Assembly: GCF_009931435.1 (NCBI RefSeq)
Contig: NZ_CP043414.1
Reading direction: 5' to 3' (one strand)
Length of the DNA stretch: 64,000 nucleotides
DNA from: Escherichia coli
Lineage (GTDB): Bacteria > Pseudomonadota > Gammaproteobacteria > Enterobacterales > Enterobacteriaceae
The position numbers were made by a program, and so were the translations under genes. Below are positions 2,069 to 60,880 of the stretch, one piece after another; within the stretch, counting starts at the first letter, position 1, and each line of letters opens with the position of its first letter. The notes below the pieces were generated by a model, which ran no database searches, was not told the origin of the DNA, and saw nothing but the letters and a program-made list of their open reading frames with translations.

Positions 2069-4006
2069 TCAGTAACGACGTCCCCATTCCGTGGCGCTCA
2101 TCAACGTTGGTTTATCCCCCATGAAATAGCGGTAGTAAGCGTCATAAGCCAGCACGTTCTTCACATAACCGCGCGTCTCAGAGAACGGAATACTCTCGAC
2201 AAATGCCACTGCGTCGATACGACCAGCGCTGTTGCCAAGCCAGGTGCGCACTCGTCCAGGTCCGGCGTTATAAGCTGCTGAGGCGAAAATACGGTTATTG
2301 CCAAACTGCTGATAAACATATTGCAGGTAACTGGTGCCGATGTTGATGTTCGTTTCCGGATCCAGCAATTGCCCAGGGCTGCTGTAGCCAGGAATAGAGA
2401 ACATCTTCACCGTATGGGTCGCCGTACCAGGCATAATCTGCATCAGCCCGCTGGCCCCTACCGGTGACTTCACTTTCGGATTCCAGGCGCTCTCCTGACG
2501 GGCAATCGCCATCGCATAGCTTTGCGGGATCTCCTTACCGCTGGTGTAACGTTTGAAAAAATCGTTGTAGGCCAGCGGGAATCGTTCTTCCAGATGATCC
2601 CACAACTTCCCGGCGATCGTCGCCTGAACGCTGAGATCCCACCATTGGTTGTTGAAAGCATACCGTGCCAGCTGTGCCTGCTCTGTTTTTGACTTGCTCT
2701 TCACCAGATTGGCCCACTCGCTACGCGCGGTGTTATCGAGATTCCAGTACATCAACTCGCGCACGCGCGCCATCTCCGGCCCCTGAGTCAGGGTGCTGTC
2801 AACATTCTGCGGCGCTTTATCAATCTTCAGCTCATACTCTTCGCCGATGCGCTGTGCAGCAACCATCGGGTAGAAACCACGCTGTTGCATGAGTTGATGC
2901 AGAATCTCTTTCGCTTCAGCTTCACGTCCGCGTTCCAGCAATAAATCGGCCTGCCAGTAACGCCATTCATCTTTCTCTTTCGCTTCCATCGGCAAACGCG
3001 CCAGCCAGGTATTCAGGCCACGCCGATCGCCAGTACCAAGCGCCATCCGCACTCGGCGTTCAATCAACGAGGTGGATTGCGAGCGCATAATGGCGTCATC
3101 GCGCCATTTCGCCTGCTCGTCGGTGACATCGTTGCCCATCAAACGCCAGGCGACGATATCGCGCAGTTCCTGAATCTGATCTTCATTAAGCTGCTGTGCC
3201 TGAGCAAGCGATGGAATCATCAGCCGTGCATTTTCAGCATCCTGCCGTGCCACGCTGGCAAACGCCACCGCCGCCATTTGACGGGTAAAATCGGTCGCAC
3301 CGGTTGTACGCGCGAAGGTCAGTACCGTATTAGGGTTGTTCGCCAGAGAAATAATCGCCGAGGCGATAGTCTGGTAATCAGCAGGCATCTGACCTGCCAG
3401 CACTGTCACCAGACCCGTGTTACCCGCTTTCATCGCCAGACGGATACGCTCTAAATACGCCAGCGGATCTTGTTTGCCTGACGCACGCCAGACACTAAAT
3501 AACTTGTCACAAGCGTTAGGCTGGCTCTTGCCGGTTAGCCACAACTCTTTCGCCCCTTGCCAGGCTTCTTCACTCTGCCCGGTGTTCCATTTCGCATAGT
3601 AGTAATTACATTGCGCTTCGGTAGTTCCGGGCTTTTCCGGGCTAAAGGCTAACAAGCCACGCCAGTCTTCACGCCGCGCCAGTTCATTGACGAAACGAGA
3701 TTGCAGCGTGCGAGCGGGAGGAAGCGTGGGGTTAGCGCGAACAAAGTTAGTGACCGTCACCGCCGGTTGATTCATCAGGTCATCGGTGATCTGACGGTAT
3801 TCCAGGTAGGGATAAAGCGGATAATCTTTCAGTCCAGGCATCATTTGTTCGACCACATCCATTTGTCGATTATCCCAGGCCTGCTTAATTTGCGCGTAAC
3901 GGCTACGCTGCTCATCCAGTGAGTCGGCTCGCGCCACGCTGCTGACCGTCAGCAGACAGACACCGACAGCCAACAGCCGCCAGGTAACGTGTTTGGCTTT
4001 TTCCAC
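2069..4006 (-). CDS. slt: Soluble lytic murein transglycosylase Slt70
   Basis: 645-aa ORF with an N-terminal signal peptide and a C-terminal lysozyme-like domain (...ESAWNPKVKSPVGASGLMQIMPGTA...). Confidence 0.95.
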   Translation of the reverse strand: MEKAKHVTWRLLAVGVCLLTVSSVARADSLDEQRSRYAQIKQAWDNRQMDVVEQMMPGLKDYPLYPYLEYRQITDDLMNQPAVTVTNFVRANPTLPPARTLQSRFVNELARREDWRGLLAFSPEKPGTTEAQCNYYYAKWNTGQSEEAWQGAKELWLTGKSQPNACDKLFSVWRASGKQDPLAYLERIRLAMKAGNTGLVTVLAGQMPADYQTIASAIISLANNPNTVLTFARTTGATDFTRQMAAVAFASVARQDAENARLMIPSLAQAQQLNEDQIQELRDIVAWRLMGNDVTDEQAKWRDDAIMRSQSTSLIERRVRMALGTGDRRGLNTWLARLPMEAKEKDEWRYWQADLLLERGREAEAKEILHQLMQQRGFYPMVAAQRIGEEYELKIDKAPQNVDSTLTQGPEMARVRELMYWNLDNTARSEWANLVKSKSKTEQAQLARYAFNNQWWDLSVQATIAGKLWDHLEERFPLAYNDFFKRYTSGKEIPQSYAMAIARQESAWNPKVKSPVGASGLMQIMPGTATHTVKMFSIPGYSSPGQLLDPETNINIGTSYLQYVYQQFGNNRIFASAAYNAGPGRVRTWLGNSAGRIDAVAFVESIPFSETRGYVKNVLAYDAYYRYFMGDKPTLMSATEWGRRY

Positions 4007-12489: not shown

Positions 12490-12518
12490 AAAAAGCCGGA
12501 GCGGTCTCCCGCTCCGGC
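12490..12518 (-). terminator. Rho-independent terminator of deoD
   Basis: GCCGGAGCGG-TCTC-CCGCTCCGGC hairpin followed by a T-run on the minus strand, about 35 nt downstream of the deoD stop. Confidence 0.6.
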
Positions 12519-12551
12519 TTCACACGACAATCGCCTTTCAGCGAAACACAA

Positions 12552-21597: not shown

Positions 21598-21718
21598 CTC
21601 TGCCTTCCTGTTTTTGTTGTGAAAGAATGACAAAGTAACGCAATTTATTATTCGCTAAAACCGCAAAAGCCAGTCCGCTGGACTGGCTTTGGATAAAATT
21701 TTCTTAATGGTCTGAAAT

Positions 21719-36784: not shown

Positions 36785-36798
36785 TTCCTGACTGATTT

Positions 36799-36825
36799 GT
36801 AGGTCGCATAAGGTGCGACCTACAC
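36799..36825. repeat. REP-like palindrome downstream of opgB
   Basis: TGTAGGTCGCATAAGGTGCGACCTACA near-perfect inverted repeat. Confidence 0.4.
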
Positions 36826-40580: not shown

Positions 40581-40614
40581 ATGCCCGATAACATTTTGCT
40601 TATCGGGCATTTTT
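40581..40614. terminator. Bidirectional rho-independent terminator between lgoT and tsr
   Basis: ATGCCCGATAA-CATTTTGC-TTATCGGGCAT hairpin followed by TTTT. Confidence 0.6.
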
Positions 40615-42425: not shown

Positions 42426-43331
42426 ATGGTACAAAGTATCAATCTTCTTCGAACCAGTGATACTCCTATGGCTTATAGCATCGATATCATCTCCTGCATT
42501 ACCGAACGATTTATGGCGTTAACAGCCACTGAAAAGCGTATCGCACAATTTATTCTTGATGACGTCTCTGCCGCAGTAGAGTTGCCAATTGCTGAGCTGG
42601 CACGGTTAACGCAAACCAGTCAGGCGTCGGTGACGCGTTTTGCCCGTGCACTGGGGTGCAAAGATGTCCGCGAGTTGAAAGTCAAACTGGCGCAGTCACT
42701 GGCTGTCGGGCAGCGGTTTATTCTCGATGTACCGGATCTTGACGGTGTTCAGGGGATCTACGAAGCGATTATTAGCGTGCTGGAAACGCATCGTCGTTCG
42801 CTGGATATGAATGCCATCAGCCAGGCTGTAAGCTGGTTAAGTCAGGCGCGGCAAATTCTTGCGTTAGGAACTGGCGGCGGTTCCACTATCTGTTCACAGG
42901 AGATTCAGTACCGTTTATTCCGTCTGGGGCTACCGGTGGTCAGTCAGAATGATGCCCTGATGATGAGAATGATGTGCTCGGCAGTGATGCCGCAGGATGT
43001 GGTGATTGTGCTGTCGCTGGGCGGTTATACACCGGAAATCATCGAAAGTGCGGCAATCGCCCGTCAGTATGGCGCGCGTGTTATTGCCATTACGCCAGCA
43101 CAAACACCGCTGGCGGAACAGGTGGATCTGGTATTGCCGTTACTGGTTCAGGAAAGTGATTACATCTTTAAGCCCACCCCTTCCCGCTACGCGATGTTAG
43201 CCATGGTCGATGTACTGGCAACAGAACTGGCAATGGCAAATAAAGCGCAGGCGAAAGATCGCCTGCGGCGGATAAAACTGGTGTTAGACAGCCACCGTGG
43301 GGGCGCTAACCGCCAGCCACTTGGCGATTAG
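42426..43331 (+). CDS. RpiR/MurR-family transcriptional regulator (HTH_6 + SIS domain)
   Basis: N-terminal HTH region (...LTATEKRIAQFILDDVSAAVELPIAELARLTQTSQASVTRFARALG...) and SIS motif ILALGTGGGSTICSQ; true start may be an internal Met. Confidence 0.7.
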   Translation: MVQSINLLRTSDTPMAYSIDIISCITERFMALTATEKRIAQFILDDVSAAVELPIAELARLTQTSQASVTRFARALGCKDVRELKVKLAQSLAVGQRFILDVPDLDGVQGIYEAIISVLETHRRSLDMNAISQAVSWLSQARQILALGTGGGSTICSQEIQYRLFRLGLPVVSQNDALMMRMMCSAVMPQDVVIVLSLGGYTPEIIESAAIARQYGARVIAITPAQTPLAEQVDLVLPLLVQESDYIFKPTPSRYAMLAMVDVLATELAMANKAQAKDRLRRIKLVLDSHRGGANRQPLGD

Positions 43332-43340
43332 CATTGTCGG

Positions 43341-44810
43341 TTATGCTTCTTCAGGTTTGGTGATCACGACACTCTGGTTTTCACGCTCATTGGTGATAAT
43401 AGCCAAAGCTTCTTCCCGGCTGACCTGACTTGCTGGCGTTACCAACGTCACCAGTACGCCAGCGACCAGGCTGCCCAGCACTGACGGAATACACGGGTTA
43501 CCCCAGTAAGCCAGCCAGTCGGCATTCATCAGCACCACAATTGACATCACCATACCGCTCACTAACGCCGCCAGCGCGCCCTGCCAGTTAAAGCGTAGCC
43601 AGAAGCGACCGAGAATCGAGCAGATAAACAGCCCGGACATCAGCATCGAAATCATTTTGGTAATGTAGCTGATGATGTCATTAGAGGTCAGAGCAAAGAC
43701 CAGCGCCAGGCCAATAACAAAGGTCAACATCCAGCGTGAGTAAGTAATGGCCTTGTCCTCCGGCGGCATTCTGCCGGTAATCATGGTGTAGACGTCGCGC
43801 ATCATAATCGCCACTGCCGCAATGGCATCAGAACTGGCAGAAGACATGGTGGCAGAAAGCCCGGCAATCAGCACCACCAGCCCAAGAATGGCAGGTAAGA
43901 AGCTGGTCGCGAACAAGAAGGCATAGTTACTGTTTTCCAGATTCGGGTTCATGGTGAACGCCGCCATGCCGATAATGGCAGGCAGAATCGAGAAGAACAG
44001 ATACAACACGCCAGTAATAACAAATGAACGCCGTACAGAGGGAACGTCTTTTCCCGAGTAAATACGCTGGCGATAAGATGGTGTGGCCAGTACGCCGACA
44101 CCAATAACCAGCGCCAGCGAAAGCGCAGGCAGCACGCCCATTTTATCAATCGCAAACAGGCTCATCGCTTTTGGGTCCATCGCCTGTTCAATCGCACTCC
44201 AGCCACCAACGTGAACAACGGCAAGAATAGCCATTAATATAAAGCCAAAGAACAGAATTAGGGCCTGAATAGTATCTGTCCACACTACCGCCGAATAACC
44301 GCCGATAATAACGTAAATCGCAAAAGCTAAGGCAATAATTAATTTTGCCACCGTAAGATCAATACCTGTCGCCCAGGCAAGATACATACTGCCACCTAAT
44401 ATATGCGCTCCCAGCCAGCCAATAGAGGCAATAAATATCATCAGGCCGACAATATTTTTAATTAAATGGCTGCCGCCAGTATAATAAGATATTTCTTCAC
44501 TCATGGTCATAAAACGTAATTTACGTACCGGTGCAAACAGCCACGCCACCAGTAATATACCTACGGCCCCACCGACGCCATAAAGCATTCCGGCCCAGCC
44601 ATTGCTGTAGCCAAAGCCCACTGCGCCCATACTGGAACCCGTGCCAACCATCGTGGCAACGGTTGACCCCAGCGTCAGAAACAGCGGCAGCGAACGCCCG
44701 CCCAACAGAAAATCTTCTCCGCTTTTCTGATTACGAGAAACAAACCAACCAAGCCAAATCATGGCGATGGCATAAATAATAAAGCCGACTAAAAAGATAT
44801 GACTGTTCAT
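43341..44810 (-). CDS. Sodium:solute symporter family (SSS) transporter
   Basis: 489 aa, about 13 predicted transmembrane segments; N-terminus ...FVSRNQKSGEDFLLGGRSLPLF... typical of PutP/PanF-type symporters. Confidence 0.7.
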   Translation of the reverse strand: MNSHIFLVGFIIYAIAMIWLGWFVSRNQKSGEDFLLGGRSLPLFLTLGSTVATMVGTGSSMGAVGFGYSNGWAGMLYGVGGAVGILLVAWLFAPVRKLRFMTMSEEISYYTGGSHLIKNIVGLMIFIASIGWLGAHILGGSMYLAWATGIDLTVAKLIIALAFAIYVIIGGYSAVVWTDTIQALILFFGFILMAILAVVHVGGWSAIEQAMDPKAMSLFAIDKMGVLPALSLALVIGVGVLATPSYRQRIYSGKDVPSVRRSFVITGVLYLFFSILPAIIGMAAFTMNPNLENSNYAFLFATSFLPAILGLVVLIAGLSATMSSASSDAIAAVAIMMRDVYTMITGRMPPEDKAITYSRWMLTFVIGLALVFALTSNDIISYITKMISMLMSGLFICSILGRFWLRFNWQGALAALVSGMVMSIVVLMNADWLAYWGNPCIPSVLGSLVAGVLVTLVTPASQVSREEALAIITNERENQSVVITKPEEA

Positions 44811-44912
44811 AATTCACATCCTGCCAGTAGAGAGAGAATAATGTAAGAGTTCCCGGAGTGCTGAATGTATTCAGCACTCAATTGCGGTCTGTTTTTTTAA
44901 TTCTTAAATTTA

Positions 44913-45308
44913 TTAGCGGGTCGCGTTATAACAGGTCACATCGACTTCGACTTTACAATCGACAACCAGATCAGCCACACAACAAATACGTGCAGGCGGA
45001 TTCTCGCCAAAAAATTCTCTGAATACTTTATTAAATGACTGGAAATAGCGGGCGTCGGTCAGGATCACTTTCACGTGAACCACATCCGCCAGGCTATAAC
45101 CGGCTTCAGTCATGATGTCGACACAGTTTTGGATCGCCAGTCGTGACTGTTCAACGATTCCGCCTTCTACCACTTCACCGTTTTTCATGGGTGTTTGCCC
45201 GGAGACGTACAGCCAGCCGCCCGCCTCAACCGCCCTGGCAAAAGGCAAATGCTGCCCGCCAGTGCCTGTTCCACCTTCCGTACCGTAACGTTTAATGCTC
45301 ATATTCAC
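44913..45308 (-). CDS. RidA/YjgF-family reactive-intermediate (enamine/imine) deaminase
   Basis: 131 aa with the YjgF fold signature (...AGYSLADVVHVKVILTDARYFQSFNKVFREFF...); starts 3 nt after the upstream deacylase stop. Confidence 0.7.
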   Translation of the reverse strand: MNMSIKRYGTEGGTGTGGQHLPFARAVEAGGWLYVSGQTPMKNGEVVEGGIVEQSRLAIQNCVDIMTEAGYSLADVVHVKVILTDARYFQSFNKVFREFFGENPPARICCVADLVVDCKVEVDVTCYNATR

Positions 45309-45311
45309 TCC

Positions 45312-46763
45312 TTAATGTGAGGTCTGCCGGCGCAGGAAGCGTCCCGCACGGCCTGTAATATGTTTATCGCGACCATAGCTCATAACGCCGTTCACCATCA
45401 CCGCCTCAATGCCATCTGCCGGGCGTTTGGGATCAGAAAAGCTGGCAACATCACGAATGGTTTGTGGATCGAACAACACCAGGTCCGCAAAATAACCGAC
45501 TTTCACCAGTCCACGCTGGGGCAGGCGAAAACGGCTGGCAGAAAGCCCGGTCATTTTGTGGATAGCCGTGGTCAGTGGGAATAAGCCTTCATCACGGCAA
45601 TAGTGGCCCAGCACACGAGGGAAGGCGCCCCATAAACGTGGATGCGGCATGGGATCATTGGGCAGGCCGTCAGAGCCAATCATACTGACCGGATAACTCA
45701 ACACTCGGCGGACGTCGCGCTCGTCCATGTTGTAATAGATAGCCCCGGCAGGCATTAGCAGCTTCGCGGCCTCCAGCATACTCATCTGCCAGTCGATGGC
45801 GATTTGCGCCAGTGTTTTCCCGGCCTGCTGCGGATGTGTTTGTGACCAGGTGATCATAATATCGAATTCGTCGGTGACTTGTTTGAGATCCAGCGTTGAA
45901 GAGCTGGCTGAGTAAGGGTAGACATCGCAGCCAATTTCCTGGTGTTGACGCATTTGGTCAAAAAAGGCCAACGTTTCTTTTGTCCGCCCCCAGTTTTTCG
46001 CCCCGGCGCATTTATGATGGGAAACCACGACAGGCACTTTGCCATGACGCCCAATACGAAACGCCTCATCCAGGGCATCGAGAATCGGTTCAAATTCAGA
46101 ACGCAGGTGGGTGGTATAAACGCCCTTCTCACCGGCTAATTCTTCCGCCAGCGCCATGACTTCTTCGGTAGTCGCCTGAAATGCTGTGGCATAGGCCAGC
46201 CCGGAACTTAACCCCAGCGCCCCCTGACTCAACGCCAGACGTAAGTCGGCGCGCATGGCGGCAATTTCATCCGCCGTCGCCGGGCGAAACAGGTCGTCCA
46301 TATGGTTATTACGCAGCGCCGTATGACCAATCAGCGTGCCAACGTTCAGTGACGGCCTGGCTGCTTCCACTGCCTGGGCATAGCTTTCAACGGTAGGATA
46401 AATAAAGTGCTCCGCTTCCCCCAACAGATTCATCGGGTCAGGAACTTCACCTTTCATTTTCGCCGACGCCGCACTGATCCCGCAGTTACCGACAATCACC
46501 GTAGTGATCCCCTGACTGATCTTTGGCAGATATTCCGGGATGCGAATAACGTTGATATCGTCATGGGTATGAACGTCGATAAACCCTGGTGCCAGCACCC
46601 GCCCTTCCCCGTCAATGACCTGCTGCGCCGTAGCGTTAAGCGCAGGGGCAATATCGACAATCCGATCACCTGTTATTGCCACGTCACCGCGAAATTCAGG
46701 GCCGCCGCTACCGTCGATAACGGTCACATTTTTGATTAACCAGTCAACCTGCATGTTCGTCAC
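45312..46763 (-). CDS. N-acyl-D-amino-acid deacylase (D-aminoacylase), amidohydrolase superfamily
   Basis: 483 aa; N-terminus VIDGSGGPEFRGDVAITGDRIVDIAP and metal-binding GFIDVHTHDD motif. Confidence 0.7.
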   Translation of the reverse strand: MTNMQVDWLIKNVTVIDGSGGPEFRGDVAITGDRIVDIAPALNATAQQVIDGEGRVLAPGFIDVHTHDDINVIRIPEYLPKISQGITTVIVGNCGISAASAKMKGEVPDPMNLLGEAEHFIYPTVESYAQAVEAARPSLNVGTLIGHTALRNNHMDDLFRPATADEIAAMRADLRLALSQGALGLSSGLAYATAFQATTEEVMALAEELAGEKGVYTTHLRSEFEPILDALDEAFRIGRHGKVPVVVSHHKCAGAKNWGRTKETLAFFDQMRQHQEIGCDVYPYSASSSTLDLKQVTDEFDIMITWSQTHPQQAGKTLAQIAIDWQMSMLEAAKLLMPAGAIYYNMDERDVRRVLSYPVSMIGSDGLPNDPMPHPRLWGAFPRVLGHYCRDEGLFPLTTAIHKMTGLSASRFRLPQRGLVKVGYFADLVLFDPQTIRDVASFSDPKRPADGIEAVMVNGVMSYGRDKHITGRAGRFLRRQTSH

Positions 46764-46954
46764 TCCATTTCTGCAATGGTGACAAGTTAACCATTTACAA
46801 GGACGAAAAACAGTGGAAAACTACGCAAAACCCAGATGATTTTCTGATACTTTTATTCATAAACTATAAGATAAATAAACTAAATATTTATATTTCATTT
46901 AGTTACAAATGATACTCACATCCGATACGGTGAAAAACTTAAAAGGTAAATGTT

Positions 46955-48175
46955 ATGAAATACCACTCAGAACCTCTGGTTCCCCATAAATCGGCCCTGA
47001 TGCAAATGCCCGCAAATCTCCTTGCCGAAGATGTCTGTTTACCTGCCGCGATCATTAAAAAGCAGGCCCTGGAGAACAACATTACGTGGATGCAGCGTTA
47101 TGCTGACGCGCGCGGCGTTTCGCTGGCACCGCACGGTAAAACCACCATGACGCCGTGGATTTTTCAGGCGCAGCAGGCAGCTGGTGCCTGGGCAATAGGT
47201 GTCGGTAGCGCATGGCAGGCTGGTGCGGCAATGGCGAGCGGTATTCAGCGAGTGCTGATGGTTAACCAGCTGGTCGGCAAGGCGAATATGCAGTTGATTG
47301 CCCAGTTGCAACGACATTACCCGACGGTCGATTTTATCTGCTGTATCGACAGCATTGAGAACGCCCGCGCTTTGTCTGCCTTTTTTGCCAGTCAGCAACA
47401 GACACTGAACGTGATGATTGAGTTGGGTGTCCCCGGCGGACGCTGTGGCTGCCGCTCAACGGATGCCGCACTGGCACTGGCTAAACAGGCGGCCCAATTA
47501 CCAGGGCTACGTCTGCGCGGGCTTGAGTTATATGAAGGTGTTTTACACGGTGACGATCCACAACCGCAGGTAGAAGCACTGCTGCGGGATGCCGCACAAC
47601 TGGCCTGTGATATGGCAAGTCTGGTTGATGGCGAATTTATTCTCACCGGAGCAGGCACGGTCTGGTATGACGTGGTGTGCAATATCTGGCTGGCGGCAGA
47701 AAAGCCTGATAACTGCCGCATTGTTATTCGCCCTGGCTGCTACATCACTCACGACACCGGGATCTACGACGCGGCACAACAACAGTTGCTTGCCCGCGAT
47801 CCTGTGGCCTGCGATCTGGCAGGCGATCTCACATCTGCGCTGGAACTGGTCGCCATGGTGCAATCGGTGCCGGAAGCTGATCGTGCGGTGGTAAATTTTG
47901 GTAAGCGTGATTGCGCCTTCGACGCCGGACTGCCGCAACCAGTCGCCCACTACCGCAACGGCAAATCACTGGCATTTGATCCACAGGCGATTCGCAGTAC
48001 AGGCATTATGGATCAGCACTGCATGTTGCAACTGTCAGCTAATAGCGACGTGCAAGTGGGGGATATTCTGGTGTTTGGCACATCGCATCCGTGCCTGACC
48101 TTCGACAAATGGAAAGCGTTGTTATTGACTGATGACGACTACAACGTACTGGCGGAATTAGACACTCTCTTCTAA
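46955..48175 (+). CDS. PLP-dependent alanine-racemase-fold enzyme (D-serine deaminase-like / D-threonine aldolase family)
   Basis: 406 aa; candidate PLP-lysine motif LAPHGKT near the N-terminus; divergent from the deacylase operon. Confidence 0.6.
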   Translation: MKYHSEPLVPHKSALMQMPANLLAEDVCLPAAIIKKQALENNITWMQRYADARGVSLAPHGKTTMTPWIFQAQQAAGAWAIGVGSAWQAGAAMASGIQRVLMVNQLVGKANMQLIAQLQRHYPTVDFICCIDSIENARALSAFFASQQQTLNVMIELGVPGGRCGCRSTDAALALAKQAAQLPGLRLRGLELYEGVLHGDDPQPQVEALLRDAAQLACDMASLVDGEFILTGAGTVWYDVVCNIWLAAEKPDNCRIVIRPGCYITHDTGIYDAAQQQLLARDPVACDLAGDLTSALELVAMVQSVPEADRAVVNFGKRDCAFDAGLPQPVAHYRNGKSLAFDPQAIRSTGIMDQHCMLQLSANSDVQVGDILVFGTSHPCLTFDKWKALLLTDDDYNVLAELDTLF

Positions 48176-48180
48176 GAATA

Positions 48181-48214
48181 CCCCTTCGGTTAATTATCGA
48201 AGGGGCATTTTTAT
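48181..48214 (+). terminator. Rho-independent terminator after the racemase-fold gene
   Basis: CCCCTTCG-GTTAATTAT-CGAAGGGG hairpin followed by CATTTTTATT. Confidence 0.65.
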
Positions 48215-51878: not shown

Positions 51879-52628
51879 TTATGAAACATCACGAAATACA
51901 CAGGTAAGTTCTTTAGGACTTGCTTTCCATATATGGTCAAAGCCACTCGACAGCATGACTTCTATTTTTCCTTCCGGACTTTCAATTAGTAAATAGCGAT
52001 CATGGCAGTTTGTATATTTGGGATTTGTAGTGATTTGCACACTCCATTCAGGATGGATACAATGAACAAAATTACTATTTATTTTACTTCCGTTTTGGAC
52101 TGCAGCGACACCTACTGCGATTTCTGAAAATTCAATAACAAGCTCTTTTCTAGGTAGTACGGAATGAAATAAGCTGCATGTATTCTCCCAATTCTGTGCA
52201 AAGTAATTATCGCATATAATTACTTTTTTTGCATTGCAACATAGCATTTCCAGATACTTTTTTAAATATATTCTATTATCTGTAGGGCTTAATGTAACGG
52301 TAACTTGATTATTAACCATACCTTTTTTATAATGTACAAAGGGAAGTGATAAATTATCATTCTCAGTAAGGATTATTTTCAACAACGATTTAGATGCTAA
52401 AGTAACAAGATCATCATCACTTTCAGGCTGACTTGCTAACATAGATAAATATTGTCGATATTCTAACTCCGGCATCTTCAATCCTAAATTTCTTGCCTCA
52501 ATCCATTGCCTTTTGTTAGTTAAATAAGGTAGTACTAGTTTTTTATGTAATCTCTTCACCTTATTCTTATCATCCATATTTTCATATGCAACTAATAAAG
52601 ATGTATCAAGAACCATTTGATAAGACAT
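51879..52628 (-). CDS. Hypothetical protein, no recognisable domain; third gene of the accessory operon (gene C)
   Basis: 249-aa ORF; ATG 4 nt after the ATPase stop with a GAGGT Shine-Dalgarno; AT-rich coding sequence. Confidence 0.6.
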   Translation of the reverse strand: MSYQMVLDTSLLVAYENMDDKNKVKRLHKKLVLPYLTNKRQWIEARNLGLKMPELEYRQYLSMLASQPESDDDLVTLASKSLLKIILTENDNLSLPFVHYKKGMVNNQVTVTLSPTDNRIYLKKYLEMLCCNAKKVIICDNYFAQNWENTCSLFHSVLPRKELVIEFSEIAVGVAAVQNGSKINSNFVHCIHPEWSVQITTNPKYTNCHDRYLLIESPEGKIEVMLSSGFDHIWKASPKELTCVFRDVS

Positions 52629-57483: not shown

Positions 57484-57522
57484 GCCTTCTGCAACCATCA
57501 TGTTGCAGAAGGCCTTGTTTTT
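57484..57522 (+). terminator. Rho-independent terminator between hsdR and hsdM
   Basis: Perfect 12-bp stem GCCTTCTGCAAC / GTTGCAGAAGGC with a 6-nt loop, followed by CTTGTTTTTC. Confidence 0.55.
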
Positions 57523-60753: not shown

Positions 60754-60775
60754 TTTTCTCGCCCTCATAAAACCA

Positions 60776-60801
60776 ATAAAGCGGCTAAATAGCCGCTTTA
60801 T
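60776..60801. terminator. Hairpin downstream of hsdS
   Basis: ATAAAGCGGCT-AAAT-AGCCGCTTTAT palindrome 23 nt after the hsdS stop; no strong U-tract. Confidence 0.35.
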
Positions 60802-60880
60802 TCACATCACCAAAAATTATATTTTACGCTAATTTTCATCTTATTTTCATTAATTTTTAGCTGGACTTTCCCCATATTTA

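Follow-up and report, generated by a model that had tools for sequence, protein, structure and literature searches.

A Covarying Palindrome at the ridA–Symporter Junction of the ong-Like Island of Escherichia coli as a Putative mRNA Stem-Loop

Gene Content of the Island and Layout of the Gap

The window (the whole stretch of Escherichia coli DNA that was analysed, 64 kb) carries an island at 42426-48175 that matches the 'ong' cluster for the catabolism of N-acetyl-D-glucosaminic acid (GlcNAc1A). The island genes correspond to the OngB deacetylase, the RidA-family protein OngD, the SSS transporter OngIT, the OngC deaminase, and the RpiR-family repressor OngR (Table 1). A 3.7-kb block of the island was found in 194 of 5426 complete E. 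coli genomes (about 3.6%), always in the chromosome and adjoining tsr. Two hairpins were called terminator-like by the scan, one past the symporter stop and one just beyond the deaminase ORF.

Table 1. Features of the island and of the ridA–symporter gap.
Feature	Position	Strand	Remark
RpiR gene, convergent to the symporter 3′-end	42426-43331	+	
Canonical intrinsic-terminator-like hairpin with T-rich tail, past the symporter stop	43246..43267	-	terminator scan
Sodium:solute symporter gene / ongIT homologue, 3′ of the hairpin	43341..44810	-	
ridA–symporter gap	44811-44912	-	
Symporter Shine-Dalgarno (SD) region GGCAGGAUGUGAAUU	44811..44825	-	core GGCAGGAUGUGA invariant in 12/12 clade-A sequences
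G-free C/U-rich tract AACUCUUACAUUAUUCUCUCUCUACU, directly 3′ of the hairpin	44826..44851	-	direct sequence reading
TAC-N2-T / CYUAC box, inside the G-free tract	44840-44845	-	
RNA stem-loop (putative)	44856..44879	-	pairing covariation; invariant in 193 E. coli genomes
3′ arm of the hairpin (sense)	44866-44856	-	
5′ arm of the hairpin (sense)	44879-44869	-	
A/U-rich, poorly conserved spacer, ridA stop to hairpin	44880..44912	-	
ridA / ongD homologue, 5′ of the hairpin	44913..45308	-	
N-acyl-D-amino-acid deacylase family gene / ongB homologue, first gene of the operon	45312..46763	-	
Divergent deaminase/deacylase promoter region	46764-46954		
Amino-acid deaminase gene, divergent	46955-48175	+	
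Second terminator-like hairpin, just beyond the deaminase ORF	48181-48205	+	terminator scan

The ong cluster of Pseudoalteromonas catabolises GlcNAc1A, which is a product of oxidative chitin cleavage (PMC9537276). The cluster of P. prydzensis ACAM 620 has the same gene set as the E. coli island (OngB, OngD, OngIT, OngC, and OngR), but the gene order differs: it is ongCRBD in P. prydzensis, whereas ongC is divergent from ongB-ongD-ongIT in the E. coli island (PMC9537276). The E. coli island also lacks the kinase, aldolase, and hexosaminidase genes of the P. prydzensis cluster. Genes for a DGOK-family kinase and an aldolase are located 3′ of the symporter in Citrobacter rodentium and several uncultured relatives, and are absent from the E. 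coli island. The genes of Pseudoalteromonas are split into two operons, ongCRBD and ongIT-kdgK-ongA. OngR does not regulate the latter, whose induction by GlcNAc1A is independent of this repressor (PMC9537276). The two systems are alike in that the ongD/ongIT junction of P. prydzensis ACAM 620 is a regulatory boundary; the report on its cluster describes no RNA element (PMC9537276).

Enterobacterales-type ong genes were also seen in two records with unexpected labels, L025 (CACSKA010000015.1, labelled Chryseobacterium sp. 18061) and P0040 (labelled Pseudomonas sp. M30-35). Their RidA is 94% identical to that of E. coli and their symporter 82%, which suggests contamination, mislabelling, or recent transfer.

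The gap between ridA and the symporter gene is 102 nt long, and both genes are on the minus strand. The initial annotation had reported a 24-bp palindrome in a 100-bp RidA–symporter gap, and the placement was confirmed. In the sense direction, the hairpin starts 33 nt past the ridA stop and ends 45 nt ahead of the symporter ATG. The tract that follows the hairpin (26 nt) contains no G in sense and many YC dinucleotides, and is a candidate pairing site for an sRNA (Spot 42) or a candidate Rho-loading site. The RpiR gene, which had been described as adjacent, is not upstream of the palindrome and lies convergently at the 3′-end of the symporter gene. In the MFE fold of 44781-44825 (minus strand), the symporter SD/start region GGCAGGAUGUGAAUUAUG pairs with codons 3-8 (CAGUCAUAUCUU), a possible translation-inhibitory hairpin.

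The Palindrome Is Perfect and Single-Copy

The palindrome is GAGTGCTGAAT-GT-ATTCAGCACTC, with 11-nt arms, a 2-nt spacer, and 100% complementarity. Its sense reading is 5′-GAGUGCUGAAU AC AUUCAGCACUC-3′. The realistic RNA fold has 10 bp, a 4-nt loop, and a predicted energy of −14.2 kcal/mol; the stem is 10 bp rather than 11 because the innermost pair cannot close a 2-nt loop in RNA. Only one copy was found in the window, even when 3 mismatches were allowed, and shuffles predict none. The palindrome reported in the initial annotation was borne out. Half-sites similar to GAGTGCTGAAT (≤2 mismatches) were found 19 times in the window against 17.9 expected, and none lies in a promoter region.

Perfect inverted repeats with arms ≥11 nt and loops ≤10 nt occurred 8 times in the whole window, against 0.1 per dinucleotide shuffle, and the palindrome is therefore not a chance feature. 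The 7 other repeats have arms of 11–13 nt and loops of 2–8 nt (12493-12520, 21666-21690, 36798-36824, 40581-40610, 52200-52226, 57484-57513, and 60775-60802). They are probably terminators, for example 40581-40610 between lgoT and tsr.

There is no variation in the 40 nt around the hairpin among 193 island-bearing E. coli genomes. Used as a query, these 40 nt matched only those genomes, with one copy in each, and a REP or other dispersed repeat was rejected. The query hit two places per genome, which we read as the palindrome matching itself on both strands. No Rfam 15 family matched the gap: the scan of the window was empty there at E ≤ 10, and 14 related loci gave nothing at the gathering score.

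Pairing Is Conserved from Escherichia to Serratia

A scan based on the symporter alignment, with one genome per species, collected 80 loci. The ridA gene is directly 5′ of the symporter in every locus that extends far enough, with a spacer of 24–450 nt. Both this adjacency and a structured spacer were found in 78 of the 80 loci, which belong to Enterobacterales, Vibrionaceae, Zobellella, and Psychromonas. Clade A comprises Escherichia, Klebsiella oxytoca/grimontii/pneumoniae, C. rodentium, Jejubacter, one Serratia, and some metagenomic contigs. The spacer of clade A is 89–103 nt long and has the palindrome at the same place. A pattern scan of metagenomes for clade-A variants yielded one new stem; nearly all of its matches came from Klebsiella and E. 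coli.

The clade-A alignment contains 12 sequences, and only 9 distinct stems stand behind its covariation. In this alignment, 97% of the pair cells are standard. Compensatory double changes occur in 3 of the 11 pairs: position 4 is U-A, C-G, or U·G, position 5 is G-C or A-U, and position 6 is C-G or U-A. The pairing is kept across Escherichia, Klebsiella, Citrobacter, Jejubacter, and Serratia by these three double changes. All one-sided changes in the ten outer pairs (5/5) give G·U or U·G on the operon sense strand. The four non-standard cells are all in the innermost pair beside the loop; this pair is unable to form in RNA. The observed covariation score was reached by none of 500 shuffles. 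The core CTGAAT-NN-ATTCAG is the best conserved part of the palindrome, and the loop nucleotides vary.

Sense and antisense folds were compared on the hairpin only, which replaced folding of the whole segment because the latter was too noisy for clade A. For the 12 clade-A/Serratia stems, the sense fold was better in 6, tied in 4, and slightly worse in 2. The sense fold of the wobble-bearing variants was 0.6–5 kcal/mol more stable than the antisense fold.

The comparison shows selection for the pairing, acting on the RNA of the operon sense strand. The initial annotation had suggested an intra-operon RNA stem-loop, and both the compensatory pairing and the restriction of one-sided G·U changes to the sense strand support this suggestion.

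The distance between the hairpin and the box in the G-free tract is fixed at 10-11 nt in all clade-A relatives. The box reads CUCUUACAUU in E. coli, CCCUUACCCUAU in Jejubacter, and CCUCUACCCUACA in Serratia sp. The element is therefore described here as a single-copy module of a hairpin and a G-free C/U-rich box, without a terminator U tract.

A Longer Form of the Module Is Present in Vibrio

The hairpin-plus-box module also occurs, in a longer form, at this junction in Vibrio. A stem of 12 pairs (up to about 20), with arms 24–30 nt apart, lies approximately 20 nt past the ongD stop in most Vibrio loci. The arms are wholly different in sequence between species, yet 93% of the cells are paired. 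Compensatory changes occur in 9 of the 12 pairs, and one pair is G·U in 15 of 17 sequences. The sense fold of the hairpin beat the antisense fold in 17 of 18 loci (mean −5.9 kcal/mol). Compensatory pairing and G·U on the transcribed strand, two marks of an mRNA stem-loop, are found in both clade A and Vibrio. The conserved sequence UCCCUGUUAWUAU lies in the loop of the Vibrio stem, and the conserved box CUCUUACCCUACA comes immediately after the stem, ahead of A/U-rich sequence.

The Vibrio stem consensus GAGUGCCGG...CCGGCACUC with its CCCUACA box resembles GAGUGCUG...CAGCACUC with CUCUUACA in E. coli, where the outer stem nearly equals the Vibrio consensus. A Vibrio-only covariance model recovered all Vibrio sites and gave 6 weak extra matches, of which 3 are clade-A hairpin-plus-box sites on the right strand (C. 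rodentium, E = 0.089). With the filters off, the best match of this model in the 40-50 kb part of the window was 44828-44887 on the minus strand. At 9.3 bits and E = 2.8 this match is not statistically firm, and it is suggestive of shared ancestry between the Vibrio and clade-A modules. The E. coli palindrome resembles a shortened form of an older hairpin-plus-box module.

Several other structures were seen at this junction. At L054 3815-3830 and the equivalent Vibrio positions, a GGGG-loop-CCC followed by UGUUAAUAUU was called terminator-like inside the long stem. The inner hairpin and the outer Vibrio stem are mutually exclusive, so an alternative fold is possible. Clades B (L008, L010, L015, L016, L018, L029, L035, L037, and L038) and C (L014 and L021-L033) have a different, apparently structured leader approximately 130 nt ahead of the symporter ATG (at 4001). 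This leader comprises a variable covarying hairpin and then AAYGGGTTTCCTGT..TTTTTTCAGG, a small stem with a U-rich loop. Clade C has a third covarying palindrome, ATAATATTCAGCGGTACGAATATTAT, 25 nt ahead of the SD. No Rfam match was found for the structured leaders of clades B and C.

A three-hairpin leader precedes position 4001 in Photobacterium and some Vibrio (L040-L042, L050, L053, L057, L064, L065, and L078). Its hairpins are, in order, AGGYUGGCAAWGYACCARCCU, UACUGA..UCAGUA, and GGGGUAG..CUAUCCCC, with repeated AAGCAAAUAAAAGCAA motifs between them, and the first hairpin covaries between species. REP-like elements (GCCGGATGC..GCATCCGGC; GGGTTAGGGTGAGGGCG) lie right after the ridA stop in L015, L018, L035, and L037. 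Such insertions occur in Cedecea, Rahnella, and Buttiauxella, and the junction therefore tolerates extra hairpins.

Alternative Explanations of the Palindrome

The initial annotation had offered a binding site for the RpiR protein as a second explanation. The palindrome could be a DNA operator of a dimeric factor (OngR/RpiR or another) over an internal symporter promoter, with the TACATT box as the −10 element and the palindrome centred near −34.5 over the −35 region. The perfect dyad symmetry and the conservation of the core would fit an operator. In every clade-A sequence a TAnnnT hexamer follows at a constant 10-11 nt and could serve as a −10 element, and the ongIT gene of Pseudoalteromonas starts its own operon, which is a precedent for a promoter at this junction (PMC9537276). 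However, the gap has no −35-like hexamer and no promoter-like match on its sense strand. The outer stem arms change jointly or through sense-strand G·U intermediates, which is RNA-like and not protein-contact-like, and in Vibrio the arms are separated by 24–30 nt and covary freely, with one G·U pair conserved. These concerted changes, the sense-strand wobbles, and the Vibrio stem argue for an RNA stem-loop and against a protein operator. For OngR in particular, no copy of the palindrome occurs in the divergent ongC/ongB region, where other blocks are conserved, the hairpins at the junction of clades B and C are unrelated in sequence although their RpiR proteins are 75–85% identical, and ongIT is not under OngR control in Pseudoalteromonas, the one system tested (PMC9537276). 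The shift of the stem sequence with the pairing kept, and the unrelated stems of sister clades with the same regulator, count against the earlier proposal. The palindrome is probably not an RpiR/OngR operator, and we consider an operator of any factor over an internal promoter distinctly unlikely. The divergent deaminase/deacylase region has long blocks (TGAATAAAAGTATCA, TTTGCGTAGTTTTCCACTGTTTT, TTGTAAATGGTTAAC, and CTTGTAAATGGTTAAC) and a repeated GTATCA that are kept in all Enterobacterales clades; they are probably the promoters and the real OngR operators. In E. coli this region also contains an 8-nt inverted repeat AACTAAAT-N11-ATTTAGTT. Inspection by eye for sigma-54, CRP, and KdgR-type motifs around the hairpin gave no convincing match.

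An end of transcription is unlikely as well. A perfect G+C-containing stem shortly past a stop codon resembles a Rho-independent terminator, and the stem is stable (10-11 bp, −14.2 kcal/mol), but the U run is absent: the sense strand continues CGGGAACUCUUAC, so that the stem is followed by CGGGAAC... and not by a U tract. The terminator scan of the gap gave no call in E. coli or K. oxytoca, and an intrinsic terminator was rejected. The hairpin could still be a leaky or factor-dependent stop, or a Rho entry module that ends the ongB-ongD unit, with the G-free tract as rut and polarity on the symporter. Its position 33 nt past the stop codon, the 26-nt G-free tract rich in YC, similar G-free tracts in relatives, and the operon boundary at the same junction in Pseudoalteromonas (PMC9537276) would agree with this, whereas a tract of 26 nt is short for a rut site. 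It is very unlikely that the hairpin is a stem of a larger ligand- or protein-sensing, riboswitch-like leader that controls the symporter. Such a leader would be undescribed, as there is no Rfam match. In its favour are the multi-hairpin covarying leaders ahead of the same gene elsewhere (P1-P2(-P3) in clades B and C, three hairpins in Photobacterium), the conserved Vibrio loop, and the OngR-independent induction of ongIT by GlcNAc1A in Pseudoalteromonas (PMC9537276). The E. coli element, on the other hand, is a plain 10-bp hairpin with a variable 4-nt A/U loop, without a junction or conserved pocket, and no expression platform (a terminator or an SD-sequestering alternative) is evident. Least probable of all, and extremely so, is a functionless chance repeat or a remnant of a mobile repeat (REP/MITE-like). 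The REP-like elements after ridA in Rahnella, Cedecea, and Buttiauxella speak for a remnant; the shuffle expectation given above, the single copy per genome, and the compensatory changes across genera speak against both.

Two further candidates were rejected. A promoter-like TTCACA-18-AATAAT (10/12) is located at 44813-44842 on the plus strand, pointing antisense into the palindrome and ridA. This site probably just reflects the fact that the complement of the leader is A/T- and purine-rich. An antisense small RNA formed from it, the palindrome, and the T run at 44892-44899 was dismissed since the wobbles become A·C mismatches on the plus strand, and the T run is separated from the stem by 12 nt and lacks conservation in Klebsiella. 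A 24-codon TTG ORF runs through the hairpin and, in E. coli and Klebsiella, terminates at the symporter ATG (ATGA); it has no SD, and its frame is lost in C. rodentium.

Complementarity of the Box to Spot 42

Spot 42 is exactly complementary over its first eight nucleotides to the box UACCCUAC, and CUCU^UACCCUAC complements nt 1-13 with one bulge. Beisel and Storz reportedly described nt 1-13 as a pairing region of Spot 42. The Spot 42 sequence was checked against E. coli genomes, and only E. coli. The predicted duplex between the hairpin-to-SD tract of E. coli and Spot 42 nt 1-25 has 21 bp and −19.5 kcal/mol. When the leaders of Vibrio and clade A are paired with nt 1-25, the best predicted duplex ends on the CCCUAC box in most loci. 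For 18 representative leaders, the mean energy was −16.98 kcal/mol with the real seed and −12.96 ± 1.09 kcal/mol with 400 composition-matched shuffled seeds, of which 1 equalled it; the sRNA was picked post hoc, after the box had been seen, and the nominal significance must therefore be discounted for the number of sRNAs that could have been recognised.

Spot 42 is repressed by cAMP-CRP and represses transporters and enzymes for secondary carbon sources, and its action at galK in the galETKM mRNA is the founding case of discoordinate operon control (PMC4098024). The junction resembles galK in that an internal cistron for a secondary carbon source is preceded by a complement to a single-stranded part of Spot 42, with which pairing at the ridA–symporter junction is predicted. 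The predicted site differs from that of galK in its position, since it ends 17 nt before the AUG in E. coli and lies approximately 135 nt upstream in Vibrio, not on the ribosome-binding site. The gal operon has no counterpart of the ridA–symporter hairpin. Spot 42, with an unchanged 5′-end, is present in both Vibrionaceae and Enterobacterales (PMC3295665). The hairpin-plus-box loci are mostly from these two groups.

We speculate that the hairpin and the CYUAC box may form an undescribed, ancient post-transcriptional module of GlcNAc1A clusters, common to Vibrionaceae and Enterobacterales, by which Spot 42 (possibly with Rho) would selectively silence the transporter cistron within the operon. 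We consider this possible but unlikely. If true, the module would explain the regulation of ongIT independent of OngR.

Proposed Role of the Hairpin

Intercistronic hairpins are known to decouple the two halves of one message. The REP hairpin of malE-malF in E. coli and the hairpins of pufBA-pufLMX in Rhodobacter are, like the palindrome, stable stem-loops between cistrons without a U tract. Stabiliser hairpins of this kind should cause the segments upstream and downstream of them to differ in steady-state level. The palindrome differs from the malE-malF REP in being a locus-specific single copy and not dispersed, and from the known stabiliser hairpins in its conserved apical CUGAAU..AUUCAG and the coupled conserved G-free box. 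The element is an uncatalogued instance of the ordinary class of intra-operon hairpins.

On balance, the palindrome is probably a cis-acting mRNA stem-loop in the spacer of ongB-ongD(ridA)-ongIT that acts as a processing or stability boundary, a reading we hold with some reserve. We infer that the hairpin is a post-transcriptional boundary for the stability or processing of the ongB-ongD-ongIT mRNA. It may block 3′-to-5′ exonucleases, so that the upstream enzyme segment would be protected. If the A/U-rich spacer is cleaved, the hairpin could also shield the 5′-end of the transporter segment. By either route, transporter and enzyme levels would be uncoupled within one transcription unit. The unstructured box beside the hairpin would be the likely entry point of a trans-acting factor, such as the sRNA Spot 42 or Rho. 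For this mechanism we infer co-transcription across the ridA–symporter gap, a processing site, and an effect on half-life. The homologous junction of Pseudoalteromonas splits two operons, and the hairpin could therefore mark a 3′-end and not the interior of a polycistronic message. A differential effect of the hairpin on transporter expression, as proposed in the initial annotation, is plausible.

Conserved, covarying intercistronic hairpins are among the few sequence-level signs of post-transcriptional tuning within bacterial operons. This hairpin is located at the boundary between enzyme and transporter of a recently discovered pathway for oxidized chitin. The ong pathway reaches about 3.6% of complete E. 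coli genomes, as well as Klebsiella and Citrobacter, and in the only organism studied the regulation of its transporter is unexplained by the repressor of the cluster. If the element is merely a stability hairpin, it is an ordinary feature. A conserved intra-operon hairpin would not surprise specialists; what stands out is the depth of its conservation, the wobble evidence for RNA, and the possible link to catabolite repression. If the hairpin-box module mediates control by an sRNA or Rho, the use of oxidized chitin would be linked to catabolite repression, and an uncatalogued cis-regulatory RNA motif would be added.
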